From the IMG/VR virus record IMGVR_UViG_2526164597_000016: DNA of 34,328 nucleotides; one strand, given 5' to 3'. The notes below the pieces were generated by a model that saw only the letters and a list, made by a program, of their open reading frames with translations, searched no databases and had not been told where the DNA came from. This DNA is from a virus (Duplodnaviria > Heunggongvirae > Uroviricota > Caudoviricetes). The stretch's first letter is position 1. Each line of letters opens with the position of its first letter. The position numbers and the translations under genes are program-made. Below, one piece after another: positions 5,786-34,328 of this stretch.

Positions 5786-5896
5786 CAATAATGATTGACA
5801 TGCTTGATTTTGTATTCACAAATCAAGCATCAAGTAAACATCGATGATGAGAAAGAACAATGCTACAATCCCCACAGCATTAGAAGGAGGTTTATC
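5786..5896 (+). promoter_or_regulatory. Promoter/operator region of the methyltransferase gene
   Basis: Perfect inverted repeat TGCTTGATTT 5801-5810 / AAATCAAGCA 5820-5829 (9-bp spacer) next to TTGACA 5795-5800; extended -10-like TGcTACAAT at 5861-5869; AGGAGG 5885-5890 six nt before the TTG start. Confidence 0.5.
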
Positions 5897-6946
5897 TTGA
5901 TTAAGGTTGTTGATTTATTCTGTGGCGCGGGTGGCTTGACTCACGGTCTTCAGAAGTCGGGGCTTAATGTAGTTGCAGGTTATGATATAGATGCAGCCTG
6001 TCGATTTGCCTATGAGACAAATAATAAATCACTCTTTGTCCAGAAAAGTGTTACAGACATTGAGGACGGCGAATTAGTTAAATATTTCGAAGGAGCGAAG
6101 GTTCGAGTTTTGGCTGGTTGTGCCCCATGCCAACCTTTTTCAAGCTATACCAATAGTGCTAAATTAGGGGTAGTACGTTCAAAAGATAAAAGATGGTCTT
6201 TGCTTTATAGCTTTGCTAAGCAAATTAAATTTGCAAAGCCAGATATTATTACAATGGAAAACGTTCCCCGAGTGGTGAATCATAAGGTTTTTAAGGACTT
6301 CATTAAGTCTCTTAAAAATGATGGCTATTTTGTTTGGTATGGGGTGGTGTTTTGTCCAGACTATGGAATGGCACAAAGTCGTTCAAGATTAGTGTTATTG
6401 GCATCAAAATATGGAGAAATAGAAATAATTCCACCAACTCATGAGAAGAATGATTATAAAACGGTGCGAGATATAATCGGTAATCTTCCTGAAATTAGTG
6501 CCGGTGCTGTTCACGCTGGAGATAAACTACATCGCTCTGCATCATTATCTGATATTAATATAAAAAGAATAATGGCATCAAAACCTGGTGGAACATGGCG
6601 TGATTGGCCAGAAGAGCTAAGAGCAAAATGTCATACAAAAGAAAGTGGTTCTACATATACTGCTGTATATGGGAGAATGTGTTGGGATAAACTTGGACCG
6701 ACAATTACAACTCAATGTATTGGATATGGGAATGGACGCTTTGGGCACCCTGTCCAAAATAGAGCATTAAGTTTAAGAGAGGCTGCGCTATTACAGTCAT
6801 TCCCAGAAAAGTATGAGTTTTGGCCTGATGATGTAAAAATTGAAATGAGAACAGTTGCGCGTTTAATAGGTAATGCTGTTCCTGTTAGGCTTGGTGAGGT
6901 CGTAGGTGAAACTATTTTAAAACATTTGTCAGAAATGAATATTTAA
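5897..6946 (+). CDS. DNA (cytosine-5)-methyltransferase (Dcm-like), probable TTG start
   Basis: Motif I DLFCGAGG, motif IV PCQPFS (catalytic Cys), motif VI ENV, motif VIII QSRSR, motif X GNAV; the ORF-track N-terminal extension from 5795 translates the promoter/palindrome and is probably not coding. Confidence 0.85.
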   Translation: MIKVVDLFCGAGGLTHGLQKSGLNVVAGYDIDAACRFAYETNNKSLFVQKSVTDIEDGELVKYFEGAKVRVLAGCAPCQPFSSYTNSAKLGVVRSKDKRWSLLYSFAKQIKFAKPDIITMENVPRVVNHKVFKDFIKSLKNDGYFVWYGVVFCPDYGMAQSRSRLVLLASKYGEIEIIPPTHEKNDYKTVRDIIGNLPEISAGAVHAGDKLHRSASLSDINIKRIMASKPGGTWRDWPEELRAKCHTKESGSTYTAVYGRMCWDKLGPTITTQCIGYGNGRFGHPVQNRALSLREAALLQSFPEKYEFWPDDVKIEMRTVARLIGNAVPVRLGEVVGETILKHLSEMNI

Positions 6947-6986: not shown

Positions 6987-8945
6987 TTAGATTCCCTCAA
7001 CTATTTTCATAATTCTAGCTGCATCATTCTTTTTGTCTTGATATTCAGCATAGGCTTGTTTTGATTGCACGATTAGGTCATTATATGTCAATATTTTTCC
7101 ATTGATAGAAAGTAATTGCATATTTATAAAGTGTTGGTTCTCTTGTAAATATCCAGAGCCAACCAGGAATATTACTTCTATATGCGGTATATTTCCACCT
7201 GGGCAATTTTTAGGGTTATTGGAGAACCATTGTGTCGTTGCCTGTACATATTTATTACCTTGTGCGACTAGGTTCATTATATCTGGGTGCACTTTAGGTC
7301 GTTTCATCTCAATAATTACATGCTTGCCAGAAACGGTTTTGAAAGCGATATCAATACGAGCACCGCTAGCAGCATCAGGGTTTATCTGTTTTAGTTCCTT
7401 GGTCAATGTTTGCTCCATAACAGATGTGCCTGTGACTCTTTCCCATGAAGGATCCAATAACCATAAATGATCATATAAATACATTTGTACAGCTCTTTCA
7501 AGCTGATTTTCATCAGTTATTTTTTGGAATTTTTCAATTACTTTAAGGCGTTGCGAAGTAATTTCATAAAACATGCTTGCTTCAATGTCATTGACAGATG
7601 CAAATACATCTTTAAAATTTTCTGATTGAAGGTTGCTTATTTTATCTAATGCATCAAGGTTGTCTTGAATTCTAAGTCTTTCAAAGGCTAATACCGTATT
7701 TTTTAATACGGTTTTTCTTGCTGCTTTTTGTTCTTCCTCATTACCAGAAAAACGGAATGTGTTTACTCGTCCAATTAACTTTTCGGCACTTTCTCTCTCA
7801 TGTTTTTTGAGAGAATTCAGCCATTCACTTACTATTGGAGTATTGCTTTTAACTTCATTTACTCCTTTTTCGCGTCTCCATTTATCCCAATCTTTATCGA
7901 TTAGTTGTAGCGTTCTTTCCAGAAAACCTTTAAGTACAGGGTATCTTGGATCATTCTGTTGTAGTTTTTGACGAGAAGATGTTGCCATATCAGGCTTTTC
8001 GTTATCATCTAGAAAATCGGCGACTATTTCACCGACCAGATAATTGGTGAATACTTTAGCACTTCCAAATTCTAATAATATGTCCTCCTCAAAAACACGT
8101 CCGTGAGAGATTACAGTAATGCTGTTGTTAGATATTTCAGGGTCTTTCTTTAACTGTGATGGCTTAACTACACTGCCAATGTACCCACTAACTTTTACAT
8201 CTTTTCCTTCAAAGGTAATAGTATTTGGTAATATGTTTTTTTGTGTGATGTTTGTGCAGGATTTTATCCTTTCAGGGTCGGATTCGCCAAATTCCCAAAT
8301 GAACTCGAGATCTGAAAGGAAATCTCTATCTGCCGGTGTAATATCGGTCCCATTAATTTTAACTGTAAAGTTATGGTTGGGGCCAATAATGCTAAATCGA
8401 CGAGCTATTCGCTTTCTGAGGTAAGTTTGAGTCCTATCAATGGCTTTTTTTAGTTCAAATAATTTAATTGTAGTGCCGTAAGCAAGATTTTCGGGTATTT
8501 CAAGGGAGTCAGCAATATAGTTTTTTGATTCTTTGATACTTTGCTGTAAATCTTTGACATCTACCTCAAAGGCCTGAGGCTGTTCCCCCTTTTTGTACGA
8601 ATAAACTTGGATTTTATTGGCAAGTGAAAACATGGCAAGCTTACCAATACCTTTTCTGCCCATAACTTGACGTTTTAGATGATCGCTTTTGGCTCTTCCA
8701 TGTTCCCTGCGAGCATAACCGACTTTTAGGAACTTATTAATAATGTCATCTTTAGACATGCCATGACCATCATCTTTAATGATGACCTCTCCTTTCTCAA
8801 CATCAAGTGTAATTTCTACATTTTGAGCATCTGCATCCCATGCATTTGATATAATCTCAGTTAGTACCGCGGGAGTATTGGAATAGAGACTCATCCCTAG
8901 GTGATTTAGCACATTCAAATCAATTTTAATTTCGAAATCTGACAT
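6987..8945 (-). CDS. GHKL (Bergerat-fold, MORC/MutL-like) ATPase with C-terminal PD-(D/E)xK-like nuclease motif; candidate defence or restriction effector
   Basis: N-terminal ATPase motifs EIISNAWDA (N box), DDGHGM (G1), GRKGIGKLA (G2); C-terminal RIDIAF ... HVIIEMKRP fits a D ... E-x-K nuclease signature; AAGGA precedes the ATG; gene is AT-rich by inspection. Confidence 0.7.
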   Translation of the reverse strand: MSDFEIKIDLNVLNHLGMSLYSNTPAVLTEIISNAWDADAQNVEITLDVEKGEVIIKDDGHGMSKDDIINKFLKVGYARREHGRAKSDHLKRQVMGRKGIGKLAMFSLANKIQVYSYKKGEQPQAFEVDVKDLQQSIKESKNYIADSLEIPENLAYGTTIKLFELKKAIDRTQTYLRKRIARRFSIIGPNHNFTVKINGTDITPADRDFLSDLEFIWEFGESDPERIKSCTNITQKNILPNTITFEGKDVKVSGYIGSVVKPSQLKKDPEISNNSITVISHGRVFEEDILLEFGSAKVFTNYLVGEIVADFLDDNEKPDMATSSRQKLQQNDPRYPVLKGFLERTLQLIDKDWDKWRREKGVNEVKSNTPIVSEWLNSLKKHERESAEKLIGRVNTFRFSGNEEEQKAARKTVLKNTVLAFERLRIQDNLDALDKISNLQSENFKDVFASVNDIEASMFYEITSQRLKVIEKFQKITDENQLERAVQMYLYDHLWLLDPSWERVTGTSVMEQTLTKELKQINPDAASGARIDIAFKTVSGKHVIIEMKRPKVHPDIMNLVAQGNKYVQATTQWFSNNPKNCPGGNIPHIEVIFLVGSGYLQENQHFINMQLLSINGKILTYNDLIVQSKQAYAEYQDKKNDAARIMKIVEGI

Positions 8946-9130
8946 ATAGTCGTTCCTTGCTGAGAGTTCATTTTAGTTTCATGCAATCAATAGGTTAGGC
9001 TGAAGATAAAACCTTAAGATAACCAAAGCAAGTGTTCATTAGCGGCTTTGTTTCATGACATGATGTGTGTCGCTTTTTGCATGAAACTGCATTTGTTTCT
9101 TATATCTGCTCTTTTTACATACTGCTAGTG

Positions 9131-9152
9131 TTGACATGGCTTTGACATGGCT
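9131..9152. repeat. Perfect tandem 11-bp direct repeat TTGACATGGCT x2 just upstream of cos
   Basis: Read directly: 9131-9141 and 9142-9152 are identical. Confidence 0.8.
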
Positions 9153-9188
9153 GTGCAACCGCATTAAAACCGCCCCATGAAGCGGGCG

Positions 9189-9207
9189 GGCGAGGCGGGG
9201 AAAGCAC
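9189..9207. other. cos: cos site: 19-nt cohesive-end sequence GGCGAGGCGGGGAAAGCAC
   Basis: Exact match to the P2 cohesive-end 19-mer as I recall it, located just beyond the end of the portal gene as in P2. Confidence 0.7.
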
Positions 9208-9345
9208 TGCGCGCTGGCGGTGGTGCTGATTTTATTTTTTCAGCGTCTCAGCGCGTCGTAATGGCGCTTAGTCTGCCCGTTGAGGCGTTGGTGTGTCTGC
9301 GGGGTGTTTTGTGCGGTGGTGAGCGTGTGAGGGCGTGATGACGGG

Positions 9346-9371
9346 GTGTAAAAAAGCCGCCCGCAGGCGGC
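9346..9371 (-). terminator. Rho-independent terminator of the P-Q operon
   Basis: On the minus strand directly after the Q stop: GCCGCC-TGCG-GGCGGC hairpin followed by a T-run (plus-strand A-run 9346-9355). Confidence 0.65.
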
Positions 9372-9376
9372 GATGT

Positions 9377-10411
9377 TCAACCGTTGTCAGTGTCCAGTGA
9401 GTAGTTTTTAAAGCGGATGACCTCCTGACCGAGCCAGCCGTTTATTTCCCGAATTCTGTCCTGTAACGGGATAAGCTCATTGCGGACAAAGACCTTTGCC
9501 ACTTTCTCAATATCTCCCAGTGACCCGACGTTCTCCGGCTTGCCGCCCATCAACTGAAAGGGGATACGGTGCGCGTCCAGCAGGTCAGCGGCGCTGGCTT
9601 TTTTGATATTAAAAAAATCGTCCTTCGTTGCCACTTCACTGAGCGGGATAATTTTAATGCCGTCGGCTTTCCCCTGTGGGGCATAGAGAAACAGATTTTT
9701 AAAGTTATTGCGGCCTTTCGACTTCACCATGTTTTCGCGAAGCATTTCGATATCGTTGCGGTCCTGCACGGCATCGGTGACGTACATGATGTATCCGGCA
9801 TGTGCGCCGTTTTCGTAATACTTGCGGCGGAACAGCGTGGCCGACTCATTCAGCCAGGCAGAGTTAAGGGCGCTGAGATATTCCGGCAGGCCGTACAGCT
9901 CCTGATTAATATCCGGCTCCAGCAGGTGAAACACGGAGCCGGGCGCGAAGGCTGTCGGCTCGTTGAAGGACGGCACCCACCAGTAAACATCCTCCTCCAC
10001 GCCACGGCGGGTATATTTTGCCGGTGAGGTTTCCAGTCTGATGACCTTACCGGTGGTGCTGTAACGCTTTTCCAGAAACGCATTACCGAACACCAGAAAA
10101 TCCAGCACAAAGCGGCTGAAATCCTGCTGGGAAAGCCACGGATGCGGGATAAATGTCGAGGCCAGAATATTGCGTTTGACGTAAATCGGCGAGCTGTGAT
10201 GCACGGCAGCACGCAGGCTTTTCGCCAGACCGGTAAAGCTGACCGGCGGCTCATACCATCTGCCGTTACTGATGCACTCGACGTAATCCAGAATGTCACG
10301 GCGGTCGAGTACCGGCACCGGCTCACCAAAGGTGAATGCCTCCATTTTCGGGGCGCTGGCGGTGATTGTTTTTGCCGCAGGTCGCGGTGTTTTCCCTTTT
10401 TTCTTACTCAT
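9377..10411 (-). CDS. Q: Portal protein (P2 gpQ)
   Basis: 344 aa, same length as P2 gpQ; start overlaps the P stop (ATGA); adjacent to cos. Confidence 0.9.
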   Translation of the reverse strand: MSKKKGKTPRPAAKTITASAPKMEAFTFGEPVPVLDRRDILDYVECISNGRWYEPPVSFTGLAKSLRAAVHHSSPIYVKRNILASTFIPHPWLSQQDFSRFVLDFLVFGNAFLEKRYSTTGKVIRLETSPAKYTRRGVEEDVYWWVPSFNEPTAFAPGSVFHLLEPDINQELYGLPEYLSALNSAWLNESATLFRRKYYENGAHAGYIMYVTDAVQDRNDIEMLRENMVKSKGRNNFKNLFLYAPQGKADGIKIIPLSEVATKDDFFNIKKASAADLLDAHRIPFQLMGGKPENVGSLGDIEKVAKVFVRNELIPLQDRIREINGWLGQEVIRFKNYSLDTDNG

Positions 10412-12183
10412 CAGTAAAACTCCAGAATGGTGGATGTCAGCGGAGTGCTGATACCGGCGGTGAGTGGCTCATTTAACAGGGCGTGCATGGTCGCCCAGGC
10501 GAGGTCGGCGTGGCTGGCTTCCTCGCTGCGGCTGGCCTCATAGGTGGCGCTGCGTCCGCTGCTGGTCATGGTCTTGCGGATAGCCATGAACGAGCTGGTG
10601 ATGTCGGTGGCGCTGACGTCATATTCCAGACAGCCACGGCGGATAACGTCTTTTGCCTTGAGCACCATTGCAGTTTTCATTTCCGGCGTGTAGCGGATAT
10701 CGCGCGCGGCGGGATAGAACGAGCGCACGAGCTGGAACACGCCGACACCGAGGCCGGTGGCATCAATACCGATGTATTCGACGTTATATTTTTCGGTGAG
10801 TTTGCGGATGGATTCCGCCTGGGTGGCAAAGTCCATGCCTTTCCACTGGTGACGCTCAAGTATTCTGAATTTGCCACCGGCCACCACCGGCGGTGCCAGC
10901 ACCACGCATCCGGCGCTGTCGCCACGGTGTGACGGGTCGTAACCAATCCATACCGGACGTGAGCCGAACGGATTGGCGGCAAACGGAGCATAGTCTTCCC
11001 ATTCTTCCAGCGTGTCGACCATGCAGCGTTGCAGCTCCTCGAACGGGAACACCGACGCCTTGTCGTCAACAAATTCACACATGAACAGGTTTTTAAAATC
11101 GTCGGCGCTGTTTTCACGTTTGAGTTGCTCAATGTCGAACAGCGTGCAGCCGCCTTTCAGGGCGTCCTCAATGGTGACAATCTGCCGCCACTGGCCGTCC
11201 GCACAGAGAAGCCCACCGGCAAGGGCGTTATGACTGACGTCGATTTCCACGCGTTCGGCGGCGCTGGCGCGTCCCCGGTTAAACAGTTCACCCGACCAGA
11301 ACGGGTAGGCGTCGTGCGCCAGCGTGGACGGGGTGGAGAAATAGGTCGAGCGCAGGTGACTCTGTGAGGCCATACCTGATGCCACCTTACGCAGTACCTG
11401 AAAATTCGGGATCCAGAAAATCTCGTCGACGTACAGGTCGCCGTTATGGCTCTGCGCGGTGTTGGAGTTGGTGCCGAGAAAAATCAGTTTTGCGCCGTTA
11501 TTGCCCAGGACAATCGGGTCACCGGTCAGGTCAACGTCAACCAGACGGGCAAAGGCGATGATGTATTCGCGGAACACATACGCCTGCGTTTTACTGGCCG
11601 ACAGAAAAATCTGGTTATGGCCGGTTTTCAGGGCGCGCAGCAGCGCCTCGCGGGAAAAATAAAACGTCGCGCCAATCTGGCGGGATTTCAGGATATCGCG
11701 GATGCGGTGCTCAAGCCCGGCGCGATACCAGTGCAACTGATAGTCGAAAGACTGCTCAAAGAAAATCTGCTCCAGCTTTTCGATGGCCTCGTCACTGAAA
11801 AAATTCTTTTTCGGTTTGCGACGCCCGCCTTTGTTGCGGTTAGCGACGTTCGGATTAAGGTCTGCCTCGTTGCCGGTCTGACTGTAGCGGTTTACCCGTG
11901 CCAGTCGTTCAATCTGGCGTCCCAGCAGGTCAATTTCCTTGAAGTCACCGCCGGTTTTCTGCGGTTTGATGATGAGCTGGGTCAGCCGCGCTTCCAGACT
12001 CATTTCGACACGGCTGATGGGGGCAACGCTGTCCCAGCCGTCGCGCTGTTTCCAGCTCTGCACCGTCGGGCGTTTCATCTGCAACATGGCGGCAATCTGC
12101 GGCACGGAAAACCCCTGCCAGTACAGCAGCGCCGCCTGACGACGCGGGTCGTGTAAAAGAGTGGTGTCTGTGGTGATGGTCAT
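10411..12183 (-). CDS. P: Terminase large (ATPase) subunit (P2 gpP); start at ATG 12181-12183 with GAGG six nt upstream
   Basis: 590 aa from the internal ATG, matching P2 gpP; upstream of Q on the same strand. Confidence 0.9.
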   Translation of the reverse strand: MTITTDTTLLHDPRRQAALLYWQGFSVPQIAAMLQMKRPTVQSWKQRDGWDSVAPISRVEMSLEARLTQLIIKPQKTGGDFKEIDLLGRQIERLARVNRYSQTGNEADLNPNVANRNKGGRRKPKKNFFSDEAIEKLEQIFFEQSFDYQLHWYRAGLEHRIRDILKSRQIGATFYFSREALLRALKTGHNQIFLSASKTQAYVFREYIIAFARLVDVDLTGDPIVLGNNGAKLIFLGTNSNTAQSHNGDLYVDEIFWIPNFQVLRKVASGMASQSHLRSTYFSTPSTLAHDAYPFWSGELFNRGRASAAERVEIDVSHNALAGGLLCADGQWRQIVTIEDALKGGCTLFDIEQLKRENSADDFKNLFMCEFVDDKASVFPFEELQRCMVDTLEEWEDYAPFAANPFGSRPVWIGYDPSHRGDSAGCVVLAPPVVAGGKFRILERHQWKGMDFATQAESIRKLTEKYNVEYIGIDATGLGVGVFQLVRSFYPAARDIRYTPEMKTAMVLKAKDVIRRGCLEYDVSATDITSSFMAIRKTMTSSGRSATYEASRSEEASHADLAWATMHALLNEPLTAGISTPLTSTILEFY

Positions 12184-12356
12184 GAATACCTCGCCGTGAT
12201 GAATACACGGCAAGGCTACTGAGTCGCGCCCCGCGATTCGCTAAGGTGCTGTTGTGTCAGTGATAAGCCATCCGGGACTGATGGCGGAGGATGCGTATCG
12301 TCGGGAAACTGATGCCGACATGTGACTCCTCTAATCACTATTCAGGACTCCTGACA
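12184..12356. promoter_or_regulatory. Divergent late promoter region (P_P leftward, P_O rightward) expected from P2 organisation
   Basis: Intergenic region between divergent P and O; I could not find a clean TGT-N12-ACA Ogr dyad by eye, so this is a positional call only. Confidence 0.4.
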
Positions 12357-14346: not shown

Positions 14347-15090
14347 ATGACGAGTCCCGCACAGCGCCACATGATGCGGGTCTCGGCAGCGATGACCGCG
14401 CAGCGGGAAGCCGCCCCGTTGCGACATGCAACTGTCTATGAGCAGATGCTGGTCAAGCTGGCCGCAGACCAGCGCACACTGAAAGCGATTTATTCAAAAG
14501 AGCTGAAGGCCGCAAAAAAACGCGAACTGCTGCCGTTCTGGTTGCCGTGGGTGAACGGCGTGCTGGAGCAGGGCAAAGGTGCACAGGATGACATTCTGAT
14601 GACGGTCATGCTGTGGCGTCTGGATACCGGCGATATTGCCGGTGCGCTGGAGATTGCCCGTTATGCCCTGAAGTACGGGCTGACCATGCCGGGTAAACAC
14701 CGCCGCACCCCGCCGTACATGTTCACCGAGGAGGTGGCGCTTGCGGCCATGCGCGCTCACGCTGCCGGTGAATCCGTGGATATCCGACTGCTGACGGACA
14801 CCCTTGAACTGACCGCTGCTGCTGACATGCCTGATGAAGTGCGCGCAAAGCTGCACAAAATCACCGGTCTGTTTCTGCGTGACGGTGGTGATGCCGCCGG
14901 TGCGCTGGCGCACCTGCAACGTGCGACACAGCTCGACTGTCAGGCAGGCGTCAAAAAAGAGATTGAACGACTGGAGCGGGAGCTGAAACCGAAGCCGGAG
15001 CCGCAGCCAAAAGCGGCCACCCGTACCCCGCGTAAGACCCGGAGCGTGACACCGGCAAAACGTGGACGCCCGAAAAAGAAAGCCAGTTAA
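14347..15090 (+). CDS. M: Terminase small (endonuclease) subunit (P2 gpM)
   Basis: 247 aa, same as P2 gpM; basic Lys/Arg-rich C-terminus. Confidence 0.85.
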   Translation: MTSPAQRHMMRVSAAMTAQREAAPLRHATVYEQMLVKLAADQRTLKAIYSKELKAAKKRELLPFWLPWVNGVLEQGKGAQDDILMTVMLWRLDTGDIAGALEIARYALKYGLTMPGKHRRTPPYMFTEEVALAAMRAHAAGESVDIRLLTDTLELTAAADMPDEVRAKLHKITGLFLRDGGDAAGALAHLQRATQLDCQAGVKKEIERLERELKPKPEPQPKAATRTPRKTRSVTPAKRGRPKKKAS

Positions 15091-21923: not shown

Positions 21924-24173
21924 ATGAGCACAAAATTCAGAACCGTTATCACCACTGCTGGTGCAGCAAAGCTGGCAGCGGCAACCGCGCCGGGAGGGCG
22001 GAAGGTCAACATTACCACGATGGCCGTCGGGGATGGCGGTGGTAAATTGCCTGTCCCGGATGCCGGACAGACCGGGCTTATCCACGAAGTCTGGCGACAT
22101 GCGCTGAACAAAATCAGCCAAGACAAACGAAACAGTAATTATATTATCGCAGAGCTGGTTATTCCGCCGGAGGTGGGCGGTTTCTGGATGCGTGAGCTTG
22201 GCCTGTACGATGATGCTGGAACGTTAATTGCCGTGGCGAACATGGCTGAAAGTTATAAGCCAGCTCTTGCCGAAGGCTCAGGGCGTTCGCAGACCTGCCG
22301 CATGGTCATCATCGTCAGCAGTGTGGCCTCAGTGGCGCTGACCATTGACACCACAACGGTGATGGCAACGCAGGATTACGTTGATGACAAAATTGCAGAA
22401 CATGAACAGTCACGACGTCACCCGGACGCCTCGCTGACCGCCAAAGGTTTTACTCAGTTAAGCAGTGCGACCAACAGCACGTCTGAAACACTCGCCGCAA
22501 CACCAAAAGCGGTAAAAGCAGCATATGACCTTGCTAACGGGAAATACACTGCACAGGACGCCACCACAGCGCGAAAAGGCCTTGTCCAGCTCAGTAGTGC
22601 CACCAACAGCACGTCTGAAACGCTCGCCGCAACACCAAAAGCGGTAAAAGCAGCATATGACCTTGCTAACGGGAAATACACTGCACAGGACGCCACCACC
22701 GCGCGAAAAGGCCTTGTCCAGCTCAGTAGCGCCACCAACAGCGATTCTGAAACGCTTGCGGCAACGCCAAAGGCGGTTAAGACAGCGTATGACCTTGCTA
22801 ACGGGAAATACACTGCACAGGATGCCACCACAGCGCGAAAAGGTCTTGTCCAGCTCAGTAGCGCCACCAACAGTGATTCTGAAACGCTGGCTGCAACACC
22901 AAAAGCGGTGAAGTCTGCCTATGACAATGCTGAAAAACGTCTTCAGAAAGATCAGAACGGTGCGGATATTCCTGATAAAGGACGCTTCCTGAGTAACATT
23001 AATGTTTACAGCAAAGGTGAAGTGGATAAGAAAAAGGGAATGCGAAAGTATTCGTTTGCAGCCCCTGCAAATGTCGTTGCCGGGAAGTGGTATCCCGTTA
23101 TCTTTCGCCGTGCTGCCAGCCTTTCAGGAGAAATGGCATCCCGCGTCGTTATTTCAACTGGTTGTTATAACGGCGATTATGTAATGAATAACTGCGAGTT
23201 TAATGGCATGGTTATGCCCGGAGGCTGGACCGATCGTGGTTCATATGCGGCAGGTTATTTCTGGACGTATCAGACTAATGAGCGTTCAATCCATTCCATT
23301 GTTACAAGCCTGAAAGATGATGATGTATGTAGTGTTTTTTATGTTGAAGCCAGAGCTTTCCCTGTACAAATTCTTGCAGAGGAAGGGCTAACGGTTATTG
23401 TTCCGACAGAGGATTATGTCGTCGGTCAAACGACATATAAGTGGGGGGCAACTAATCCCGCTACAGAAAGCACGAACGCACAGGCTATTCTGGATTTTAA
23501 AAATGGGCGCGGTTATTACTGCTCACATCCATTTATTTCCAGCCTTTCAGGAAATGCTGCAACAGCAACGAAGTTAGCGAATGCAAGAAATATTAATGGT
23601 GTCAGATTTGATGGTTCTGCCGATATAAATATTAATACACTGGTATCCAGAAACCGTGTTACTGCATTAGGTGGGAGCTCAAAGGGTACACCAGGTATTC
23701 AGATGTATGAGGCATACAACAATGGCTACCCAACAGCCTATGGTAATGTGCTTCATCTCACTGGCGTAACCGCAGTAGGAGAGGGTGAGTTACTTATTGG
23801 CTGGAGTGGAACCAGCGGTGCTCATGCTCCGGCATATATTCGCTCCCGACGAGATACCACAGATGCTAACTGGTCTGGATGGGCGCAACTATATACAACT
23901 GCTCATAAACCCTCAGCGGGAGATGTTGGTGCATACACCAAAGCTGAGTCAGATTCACGTTATGTGAGAGACATGCGACTGGGCGGTGCATCTACATATA
24001 AACCAGCAAATAATGGTACTACATGGACGCATCAGGCTCCGTCAGGTTGCGTATATACCGGCATTATTGTTCAGGATACCGGCTCAAACTCTGCCGATAA
24101 CATTGGTGGCGTATATTACAGGCCGGTGCAGAAATACATTAACGGGACATGGTATAACGTGGCGCAGGTATAA
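21924..24173 (+). CDS. H: Tail fibre protein H with internal tandem repeats
   Basis: 749 aa; conserved N-terminal tail-fibre region, repeat block, then divergent C-terminal receptor-binding part; followed by G. Confidence 0.85.
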   Translation: MSTKFRTVITTAGAAKLAAATAPGGRKVNITTMAVGDGGGKLPVPDAGQTGLIHEVWRHALNKISQDKRNSNYIIAELVIPPEVGGFWMRELGLYDDAGTLIAVANMAESYKPALAEGSGRSQTCRMVIIVSSVASVALTIDTTTVMATQDYVDDKIAEHEQSRRHPDASLTAKGFTQLSSATNSTSETLAATPKAVKAAYDLANGKYTAQDATTARKGLVQLSSATNSTSETLAATPKAVKAAYDLANGKYTAQDATTARKGLVQLSSATNSDSETLAATPKAVKTAYDLANGKYTAQDATTARKGLVQLSSATNSDSETLAATPKAVKSAYDNAEKRLQKDQNGADIPDKGRFLSNINVYSKGEVDKKKGMRKYSFAAPANVVAGKWYPVIFRRAASLSGEMASRVVISTGCYNGDYVMNNCEFNGMVMPGGWTDRGSYAAGYFWTYQTNERSIHSIVTSLKDDDVCSVFYVEARAFPVQILAEEGLTVIVPTEDYVVGQTTYKWGATNPATESTNAQAILDFKNGRGYYCSHPFISSLSGNAATATKLANARNINGVRFDGSADININTLVSRNRVTALGGSSKGTPGIQMYEAYNNGYPTAYGNVLHLTGVTAVGEGELLIGWSGTSGAHAPAYIRSRRDTTDANWSGWAQLYTTAHKPSAGDVGAYTKAESDSRYVRDMRLGGASTYKPANNGTTWTHQAPSGCVYTGIIVQDTGSNSADNIGGVYYRPVQKYINGTWYNVAQV
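22455..22982 (+). repeat. Four tandem copies of a 132-bp (44-aa) unit inside H (phage tail-fibre repeat)
   Basis: Units start at 22455, 22587, 22719 and 22851 (LSSATNS(T/D)SETLAATPKAVKAAYDLANGKYTAQDATTARKGLVQ); the last copy degenerates. Confidence 0.85.
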
Positions 24174-33344: not shown

Positions 33345-33425
33345 ATCCTCAATTTGCCTGCTGCTTAATGCATTGCAGATGATTTGCTTCCGTTATACTA
33401 GCGTCAGTTGATAGCGGGAGTATTT

Positions 33426-34328
33426 ATGAATCAATCTTATGGACGGCTGGTCAGTCGGGCGGCGATTGCTGCGACGGCGATGGCTTCGTTGCTATTGCTG
33501 ATTAAAATTTTTGCATGGTGGTATACCGGGTCGGTGAGTATTCTCGCCGCGCTGGTGGATTCGCTGGTGGATATCGGCGCGTCGTTGACGAATTTACTGG
33601 TGGTGCGATATTCCCTGCAACCTGCCGACGATAATCACTCGTTTGGTCACGGTAAAGCAGAGTCCCTCGCGGCGCTGGCGCAAAGTATGTTTATCTCCGG
33701 TTCGGCACTATTCCTGTTTTTGACGGGTATTCAACATCTGATATCTCCAACACCGATGACAGATCCAGGCGTCGGGGTTATCGTGACAATTGTGGCGCTA
33801 ATTTGTACGATTATCCTTGTCTCGTTTCAGCGTTGGGTGGTGCGCCGGACGCAAAGCCAGGCGGTGCGGGCTGATATGCTACATTACCAGTCTGATGTTA
33901 TGATGAACGGCGCAATTCTGCTGGCGCTGGGGTTGTCCTGGTACGGCTGGCATCGCGCCGATGCTCTGTTTGCATTGGGAATCGGCATCTATATTTTATA
34001 TAGCGCGTTACGCATGGGATATGAGGCGGTACAGTCATTACTGGATCGCGCATTGCCTGATGAGGAACGGCAAGAAATTATTGATATCGTGACTTCCTGG
34101 CCGGGTGTTAGCGGCGCTCACGATCTTCGCACGCGGCAGTCAGGGCCGACCCGCTTTATTCAGATTCATTTGGAAATGGAAGACTCTCTGCCTTTGGTTC
34201 AGGCACATATGGTGGCGGATCAGGTAGAGCAGGCTATTTTACGGCGTTTTCCGGGATCGGATGTGATTATCCATCAGGACCCCTGTTCCGTCGTACCCAG
34301 GGAGGGTAAACGGTCTATGCTTTCATAA
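33426..34328 (+). CDS. fieF: Host cation-efflux pump FieF (YiiP), CDF family, complete
   Basis: 300 aa, [35 protein letters not shown] ... [15 protein letters not shown], recognised as enterobacterial FieF; the ORF-track start at 33408 is an upstream extension. Confidence 0.9.

Follow-up and report, generated by a model that had tools for sequence, protein, structure and literature searches.

A fixed-position TGCAT array and a lineage-specific 11-bp tandem in the flank of a P2-type cos site

The cos site and its surroundings

The viral sequence IMGVR_UViG_2526164597_000016 of IMG/VR (34,328 nucleotides, called the window throughout) is a P2-like prophage with a standard P2-type cos site. We analysed the interval 8946-9207, which begins directly beside the cargo gene for the GHKL ATPase paraMORC3 and ends with the cos cohesive-end sequence, and in which a sequence-only reading had pointed to a perfect 11-bp tandem and a recurring GTTTCATG motif. 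The interval is probably the mature-right-end flank of a standard P2-type cos, followed by a short cargo upstream region, with an array of TGCAT repeats that is family-wide and a tandem that is specific to one lineage. The features are collected in Table 1.

The 19-mer GGCGAGGCGGGGAAAGCAC has a single exact occurrence in the window, where none is expected by chance, and is identical to the annotated right cohesive end (cosR) of P2 (NC_001895, 33575-33593), in agreement with the sequence-only reading. Distances are given below as negative numbers for positions left of the cut site, counted from the start of the 19-mer at 9189. The cos site sits between the gpA-side accessory region and the portal gene Q, with the terminase genes P and M nearby, and the annotation of PhiR44_1 agrees with this arrangement. 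That phage, whose recorded host is E. coli C, carries a flank identical to that of the window, in the two-copy form of the tandem.

We aligned on the cut site the left flanks of 120 IMG/VR loci with the exact 19-mer and dereplicated them to 76 flanks of the P2/P4 type, each differing by >10%; 186, P4 and the Ralstonia phage RSY1 were compared as well. A strongly conserved ATGCAaCTGCATTAAAACCGcCCCATGAAGCGGGCG reaches the cut site in this alignment, and the hairpin sequence at 9170-9189 is near-invariant across the family. A 55-bp core of P2/P4 cos is ascribed to Ziermann & Calendar 1990 in PMC5694545 and PMC9594776, which cite that study, as does PMC9122126. We would place the limits of this core at -29 and +26, because P4-type loci retain only TGCGCGC to the right of the 19-mer, a sequence that they have in common with the window, and because high conservation begins near -29/-35. 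Window 9160-9214 agrees with the family consensus of the conserved core, and from -29 through the 19-mer two positions differ from P2. Position 9160 is C in the window and T in 71 of the 76 relatives. The proximal TGCAT is accordingly CGCAT in the window, as it is in PhiR44_1 and some E. coli genomes; the same-cargo loci L131-L135 have T at this position. The minimal functional region of the cos site is reportedly about 125 bp.

Table 1. Positions of the cos elements, the flanking repeats and the neighbouring genes in the window
Feature	Position	Strand	Remarks
cos cohesive-end 19-mer GGCGAGGCGGGGAAAGCAC, staggered-nick region	9189-9207	+	exact match to P2 cosR
55-bp P2/P4 cos core (limits as proposed here): 29 bp CGCATTAAAACC...GCGGGCG + 19-mer + TGCGCGC	9160-9214	+	
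G+C hairpin CCGCCC(N8)GGGCGG, then TTTTAATG	9170-9189	-	adjoins cut site; terminator-like in consensus scan
Proximal TGCAA/(T)GCAT pair TGCAACCGCAT	9154-9164	+	family consensus ATGCAACTGCAT, at -35 and -29
TGCATGAAACTGCAT, TGCAT #2 (-111) and #3 (-101), 10 bp apart	9078-9092	+	family-wide repeats
Module b TGCTAGTGTTGACATGGCTT	9123-9142 (-66 to -47)	+	family matrix match in register
First copy of TTGACATGGCT, right half of module b	9131-9141	+	family alignment
Second copy of TTGACATGGCT, in low-information spacer slot	9142-9152	+	perfect tandem
GTTTCATG copy 3, CATGAAAC on + strand	9080-9087	-	overlaps TGCAT #2, part of TGCATGAAACTGCAT
GTTTCATG copy 2	9050-9057	+	lineage-specific; adjoins ATGACATGAT (9054-9063)
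Left arm of perfect 12-nt inverted repeat, holding GTTTCATG copy 1	8975-8986	+	partner arm 9077-9088
Exact match to integration host factor (IHF) consensus WATCAANNNNTTR, AATCAATAGGTTA	8985-8997	+	adjoins left inverted-repeat arm
paraMORC3, GHKL ATPase cargo gene	6987-8945	-	Pfam HATPase_c_3; transcribed away from cos
C5 cytosine methyltransferase	5795-6946	+	neighbour of paraMORC3, downstream of gpA
Portal gene Q	9377-10411	-	Pfam Phage_portal
gpP, terminase large subunit	10411-12213	-	Pfam Terminase_5, HTH_23, Terminase_6N, Terminase_6C
gpM, terminase small subunit	14347-15090	+	Pfam Phage_term_smal

TGCAT repeats across the family

TGCAT recurs at fixed places in the aligned flanks. It is exact at -111±1 in 60 of the 76 flanks (74 within one mismatch), at -101±1 in 64 (73 within one mismatch), at -125 to -119 in 46 (64) and at -29 in 71 (76), against a background of 0.0013 per position elsewhere in the flanks. 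P2, 186, P4 and RSY1 have it at identical positions (-124, -111, -101 and -29), and in RSY1 these positions are the same even though the spacer is G+C-rich and unrelated to the others. The stretch from -95 to -36 is poorly conserved in the 76 flanks, yet the motif architecture is kept, and the spacing to the cut site is nearly invariant across the family. In the window, TGCAT stands exactly at 9078 (-111) and 9088 (-101), CGCAT at 9160 (-29), and TGCAT #1 (-124) is missing. The IMG/VR loci L137-L139 also have TGCAT at the family positions -111 and -101. Lineage-specific repeats occupy equivalent places elsewhere, YGCAG in phiCTX and CACGGAAA in HP1.

The locus L009 has four TGCAT copies at 10-bp steps (-131 to -101) where the near-identical L036, L082 and L101 have three. 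The extra TGCAT is a tandem expansion on the outer side, and the spacing to cos is unaltered.

To the right of the 19-mer, P4-type loci share only 7 bp before their own hotspot begins, but they retain the left-flank architecture. The cos site is the sole homologous region of P2 and P4, and P4 depends on the P2 terminase (PMC9122126). In 186, orf97 points to cos, and an annotated terminator ends it before the array is reached. In P4, the gene before the array is psu, and it too points to cos. Since both genes run towards cos, the array is not positioned upstream of a leftward gene in either phage. We conclude from this comparison that the array is probably a packaging-related signal and not a cargo promoter, because the neighbouring genes of 186 and P4 run towards cos and the P4-type satellites retain the left flank.

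The helically phased TGCAT repeats are probably the recognition sites for the P2 terminase, read by gpM and/or the N-terminal helix-turn-helix (HTH) of gpP. They would guide the nuclease to the 19-mer, much like the R sites of lambda cosB. An N-terminal HTH is found by Pfam at aa 22-79 of gpP, and through this domain gpP is a candidate sequence-specific reader of the cos-flank repeats; gpM is a candidate reader as well. Cosmids with longer cos flanks were transduced ~2000-fold better, and flank length was offered as a possible cause (PMC9594776). The earlier idea of terminase-recognition repeats on this side of cos was sound, but had been attached to the wrong repeats: recognition-type TGCAT is family-wide, whereas the flagged 11-mer and GTTTCATG are not.

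The flanks share a second, weak element from about -66 to -46, which we call module b (consensus CCAGnGCTGGCGCGGCT). A position weight matrix (PWM) of -66 to -46 was built from the other 75 flanks with the window left out. On the window, its in-register match scored 12.2 bits (the median of members being 10.7), ranked first of 381 offsets and had a shuffle p of 2e-4. Module b of the window consists of the first 11-mer copy together with the upstream TGCTAGTG.

The tandem and the GTTTCATG motifs in a cargo-linked segment

Only PhiR44_1, which has the same cargo, covered the whole interval in a BLAST comparison with phage genomes; other P2-like phages aligned from window 9154 rightwards only. 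The cos part was matched by 2,122 of the 5,426 complete E. coli genomes compared, the cargo-side part by just 30. Because homology to generic phages starts at 9154, the tandem and the GTTTCATG motifs belong, at the level of alignable sequence, to a cargo-linked segment. A recombination scar at the BLAST break (9153/9154) was considered as an origin of the tandem and rejected, as the motifs keep their architecture and register on the left of the break, too.

The tandem of TTGACATGGCT at 9131-9152 is perfect, as had been noticed from the sequence, and stops 36 bp before the cohesive-end sequence. By our own arithmetic, chance would give about 0.008 perfect 22-bp tandems in 34 kb, and we therefore regard it as a real duplication. 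Tandem Repeats Finder (TRF) found a second perfect short tandem in the window (CGCTGGTGGATT x1.9, 33550-33572), so the cos flank is not the only place with a small slippage duplication; it also found a 132-bp tandem repeat at 22470-22909 (3.3 copies, 92% matches, score 726).

The first copy aligns with CTGGCGCGGCT in 186, CTGACCTGGGT in L137 and CTGACGTGGCT in L095, and every difference from the 186 sequence is a transition. The two 11-nt slots of the window are filled by CTGACCTGGGT and then TTTGCTAGGGA in L137, by CTGATCTGGGT and TCTGCTAGGAA in L138, and by TTGGCGGGCTT and TTGCTTATGTC in L139. In these loci the two slots together are as long as in the window, and only the first is related in sequence; in the family alignment the information content of the second slot is about zero. 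The first copy is this lineage's version of module b. The second copy is probably a product of slippage or homogenisation that overwrote a low-information spacer slot and left the length unchanged, because L137-L139 combine equal total length with a related first and an unrelated second slot. Either a duplication with a later loss or slippage-driven homogenisation could have produced it; the tandem would have no separate function beyond keeping length and helical phase. On this evidence the tandem is a repeat variant of a weak module and its spacer that belongs to one lineage, varies slightly in copy number and keeps the spacing constant.

Two copies were found in 29 of the 30 E. coli genomes, in PhiR44_1, in the IMG/VR loci examined and in one metagenome contig, and no one-copy allele was seen among the carriers examined. 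The remaining genome, E. coli GPEC1366, has three copies (+11 bp), which moves its array to -122/-112 and makes it the sole array-spacing outlier among the flanks examined; the two copies of the window give the canonical array-to-cut spacing. The tandem is restricted to one cargo lineage. An exact-pattern scan for the repeat junction returned 2 IMG/VR loci, 1 metagenome contig and 0 representative genomes, and missed the same-cargo loci that have T at 9160. A protein-guided scan of representative genomes for relatives confirmed none, and a plasmid search with the cargo-side intergenic region gave no match.

Two TTGACATGGCT units could also be paired sites, one helical turn apart, that are bound by the terminase or a host architectural protein and maintained by selection for both copies. 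The 11-bp unit is close to one helical turn, the first copy is in register with module b, and the uniform presence of at least two copies among carriers fits such selection. The unit also resembles the P4 TGCAT unit (GTGCATGGCT/TTGCATG), with one base extra, and P2 has TGATATGGCT and TGATGGCT in the same flank. Set against this, the closest sister lineages as well as 186, P4 and RSY1 have an unrelated sequence in the second slot, which carries next to no family information, a three-copy allele exists, and the tandem is limited to a single cargo lineage; we consider paired sites unlikely.

The polymorphism raises two further ideas. Gain and loss of units could make the repeat a contingency (phase-variation) locus that switches packaging competence or cargo expression, given that copy number varies (2 vs 3) and that each unit alters by 11 bp an array-to-cut spacing that the family otherwise fixes within ±1. 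Two units are, however, a very short array, no promoter spans the repeat, and a single E. coli genome of the 30 differs while the other carriers examined all have two copies, so that copy-number variation is not frequent; no promoter or open reading frame (ORF) depends on the 11-mer. This makes a contingency locus highly improbable. It is also improbable, though somewhat less so, that the distance from array to cut is a strict ruler of the P2-family terminase, set at -111/-101 from E. coli to Ralstonia, the 11-bp unit a one-turn spacer, and slippage between two and three copies a way in which packaging of the prophage is reduced or switched off with its genes untouched. If true, this would be a cis-acting, reversible means for a host lineage to retain the paraMORC3/Dcm cargo while the phage is immobilised.

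PhiR44_1 annotates two short hypothetical proteins over the cos flank, with window equivalents at 9039-9164(-) and 9177-9338(+). The first ORF spans the TGCAT array and the tandem and would be frameshifted in the three-copy allele; the second spans the cos cut site. Both are very likely spurious. On hand inspection we also considered an Ogr/delta activator site at 9128-9146, where TGT-N13-ACA spans the tandem. Such late-activator sites require TGT-N12-ACA; with the wrong spacing and a pattern that is not conserved in other lineages, the candidate was rejected.

The sequence-only reading had further pointed to a -35-like TTGACA and taken the interval as the promoter region of the GHKL gene. The hexamer is present in each 11-mer and the interval does lie between cos and that gene, of which it is the only upstream region, but the promoter role was not upheld. 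The hexamers are on the + strand and point away from paraMORC3, which is on the - strand. A consensus promoter scan of 8850-9450 found none, and a PWM scan of both strands found nothing above shuffles (95th percentile of the best shuffled site, 11.0 bits). The best - strand site, TTGCTT(9031)-17-TATCTT(9008), reached 8.3 bits, and the best + strand site, TTGACA(9142)-17-TAAAAC(9165), 10.1 bits. A sigma-70 promoter built on the TTGACA of the 11-mer was rejected, since it fails the consensus scan and its best PWM site is under the shuffle threshold and directed away from paraMORC3. A sigma-54 site, TGGC-N9-CGCA near 9148-9163, noticed on hand inspection, keeps the GG-N10-GC spacing; it was rejected as an otherwise poor match with no downstream gene.

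The + strand site could in principle be a weak rightward promoter created by the second copy (TTGACA 9142-9147, 17 bp, TAAAAC 9165-9170), reading across cos and antisense to Q and P. Of the promoter-like sites on the two strands it scores highest, and it has a 17-bp spacer and a perfect -35. Its score stays below the shuffle threshold, however, its -10 is without the critical final T and does not pass the consensus tool, its -35 is absent in all other lineages, and no + strand gene precedes 12291. We regard such a promoter as very improbable.

The GTTTCATG motif occurs in the window at 8976-8983(+), 9050-9057(+) and 9080-9087(-) and nowhere else, close to the positions reported earlier (about 8972, 9050 and 9081). 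Three copies in 34 kb are unremarkable (1.7 expected; 27 of 100 shuffles reach 3), and the chance of all of them falling inside 112 bp is about 3e-5 by a rough post-hoc estimate. Two of the copies are included in the arms of a perfect 12-nt inverted repeat, AGTTTCATGCAA (8975-8986) and TTGCATGAAACT (9077-9088), for which about 0.008 are expected by our estimate; one arm is 30-41 nt upstream of the paraMORC3 ATG. Among the 76 distinct flanks, the 8-mer is confined to this cargo lineage. In L137/L138 the counterpart of the 9050 copy is CTTGCAATG and that of the 8976 copy GGTTTCTAAC, so that the 8-mer is not conserved, and neither is the left inverted-repeat arm in the sister lineage alignment. 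ATGACATGAT (9054-9063) and TGCATGAAAyTGCAT are kept in both loci. The copy at 9080 would be a fragment of the TGCAT array, being part of TGCATGAAACTGCAT, because TGCAT #2 and #3 sit at 9078 and 9088. Among the flagged repeats, therefore, the 9080 copy does overlap TGCAT and the first 11-mer does fall in module b, whereas the second 11-mer, the copies at 8976 and 9050 and the inverted repeat have no such conserved counterpart in L137/L138. As general cos repeats, the 11-mer tandem and GTTTCATG are absent from other P2-like cos regions, an outcome that the sequence-only reading had itself named as counting against them.

A regulatory role in paraMORC3 expression, in which GTTTCATG and the inverted repeat formed an operator pair or a leader structure and TTGACA served as -35, would give these motifs a function. 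It would fit the rarity of the inverted repeat and the position of its arm near the ATG, the restriction of all upstream sequence of paraMORC3 to this interval, and the exact IHF consensus beside the arm. It would also have a precedent in the mapped old-tin promoter of P2, which lies in the same flank: its transcript starts are annotated at 33424 and 33426, and in our reading its hexamers are TTGAAT (-35), overlapping TGCAT #1, and TAAAAA (-10). No equivalent hexamers were found at the homologous position of the window. The orientation of TTGACA and the promoter scans speak against the proposal, as does the failure of the 8976 and 9050 motifs and the left arm to be conserved upstream of the 89%-identical paraMORC3 of L137/L138. 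A transcript across both arms, the putative paraMORC3 leader, folded no better than shuffles (z = +0.65); on this value, and on the lack of arm conservation in L137/L138, a structured RNA leader or attenuator was rejected. The IHF consensus has two exact matches in the window, with the overall pattern count at chance level, and the match at 8985-8997 lies outside the conserved TGCAT array; L137 has a one-mismatch version of it. We consider this regulatory role unlikely, slightly more so than the paired sites. The copies at 8976 and 9050 and the inverted repeat are, from their distribution, lineage-specific sequence, possibly part of a paraMORC3 promoter or leader.

The paraMORC3 proteins belong to the GHKL-S5 type, carry a C-terminal domain with the restriction-endonuclease fold and typically occur in restriction-modification contexts (PMC2292703). 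In annotations of PhiR44_1 and in RefSeq the protein is named paraMORC3 or a BbrUII/HgiDII-family restriction enzyme. GTCGAC, the HgiDII/BbrUII site, was considered as a possible recognition site of the cargo protein; it does not occur in 8946-9207 and is not depleted in the window. Homologues of paraMORC3 at 89, 78, 75 and 68% identity sit directly left of cos in other Peduoviridae lineages (among L137-L142; L137/L138, at 89%, being the closest sister). These lineages have differing cohesive-end variants, and the distance from the ATG to cos is nearly constant (246-272 bp). Together, this suggests that the linkage of paraMORC3 to cos is old and stable and not a recent hotspot insertion.

The metagenome contig OGXH01008230.1 (L127) has the same paraMORC3 and two-copy flank left of cos, and diverges after TGCGCGC into A+T-rich unknown genes, like P4-type hotspots; its far end looks unrelated. 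Such a contig could be a chimera of the assembly, joined at the shared core, or the outcome of a true exchange through the cos core. Nearly the same type of cos-left flank is followed on the right by P2-type sequence (towards gpQ) in some loci and by sequence of the P4-hotspot type in others (L017 and L010 vs L012, L042 and L064), and this pattern of flank sequences suggests that phage and satellite may recombine within the 55-bp core.

Weight of the reading and comparison with known systems

Several points weigh against reading the flank as a packaging array with a tandem of no separate function. A literature search found no binding or packaging data for these motifs, the deletion analysis of Ziermann & Calendar 1990 being outside its reach. 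P2 has TGATATGGCT at -86 and TGATGGCT at -54, so a TGAyATGGCT-like site might be more than filler, namely a genuine binding site that is repeated. Selection for two sites could explain why the two copies are perfectly identical and why no one-copy allele was seen. Statistically, the inverted repeat and the close grouping of GTTTCATG remain unusual, and neither is explained. No promoter of paraMORC3 could be placed, so regulatory and packaging signals may overlap, as at P2 Pold. Finally, depending on the direction of P2 packaging relative to this flank, its role could be cosQ-like (termination) instead of cosB-like.

The cos site itself is of a known kind, and the flagged tandem is of minor interest. 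The most useful outcome is the quantified TGCAT array at fixed positions across the family, which extends from the enterobacterial P2, 186 and P4 to a Ralstonia phage and offers a concrete candidate for terminase recognition beyond the 55-bp core. The array is relevant to the design of P2/P4 cosmids, as flank length has been suggested to affect transduction efficiency. In addition, each hotspot cargo travels with its own diverged packaging flank, which would constrain the exchange of defence cassettes beside cos.

The window shares with the cos of P2 and P4 the same 19-mer, the same place between the gpA-side cargo hotspot and gpQ, and the same TGCAT positions (P2, P4 and 186). It differs in that -95 to -36 is specific to the cargo lineage and contains the perfect 11-bp tandem, that TGCAT #1 is missing and that the proximal repeat is CGCAT. 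In the P2 old-tin promoter, a leftward cargo gene is expressed from inside the cos flank, whereas the window lacks equivalent hexamers.

In lambda, cosB consists of the gpNu1 R sites and the IHF site I1, on the terminase-gene side of cos. The window likewise has a repeated motif with fixed spacing beside the nick site, in the form of short motifs at fixed distances with an A+T-rich segment between, an arrangement that presumably positions the terminase. The motif, the spacing and the proteins are unrelated to those of lambda. The putative terminase array of the window also differs in its place, at the mature right end and across cos from P and M. Since P2 reportedly matures monomeric circles, a single site in P2 may serve both initiation and termination. 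Closer in descent is phiCTX (NC_003278), a member of the P2 family with annotated direct repeats R3-R6 flanking cos, of which R4-R6 lie across it, and an IHF site. Its YGCAG motifs at -110, -99, -37 and -28 are near the TGCAT positions of the window and the family, while the repeat sequence differs, additional AATTACCTTT repeats lie farther out and the cohesive end is different.

The location of the cargo between gpA and cos, here the C5 methyltransferase and paraMORC3, is that of the cos-adjacent accessory/defence hotspot of P2 (Rousset et al. 2022, PMC9122126). In that description cos is a conserved boundary, whereas here each cargo type has its own diverged flank left of cos, and the link of paraMORC3 to cos extends over five diverged lineages.

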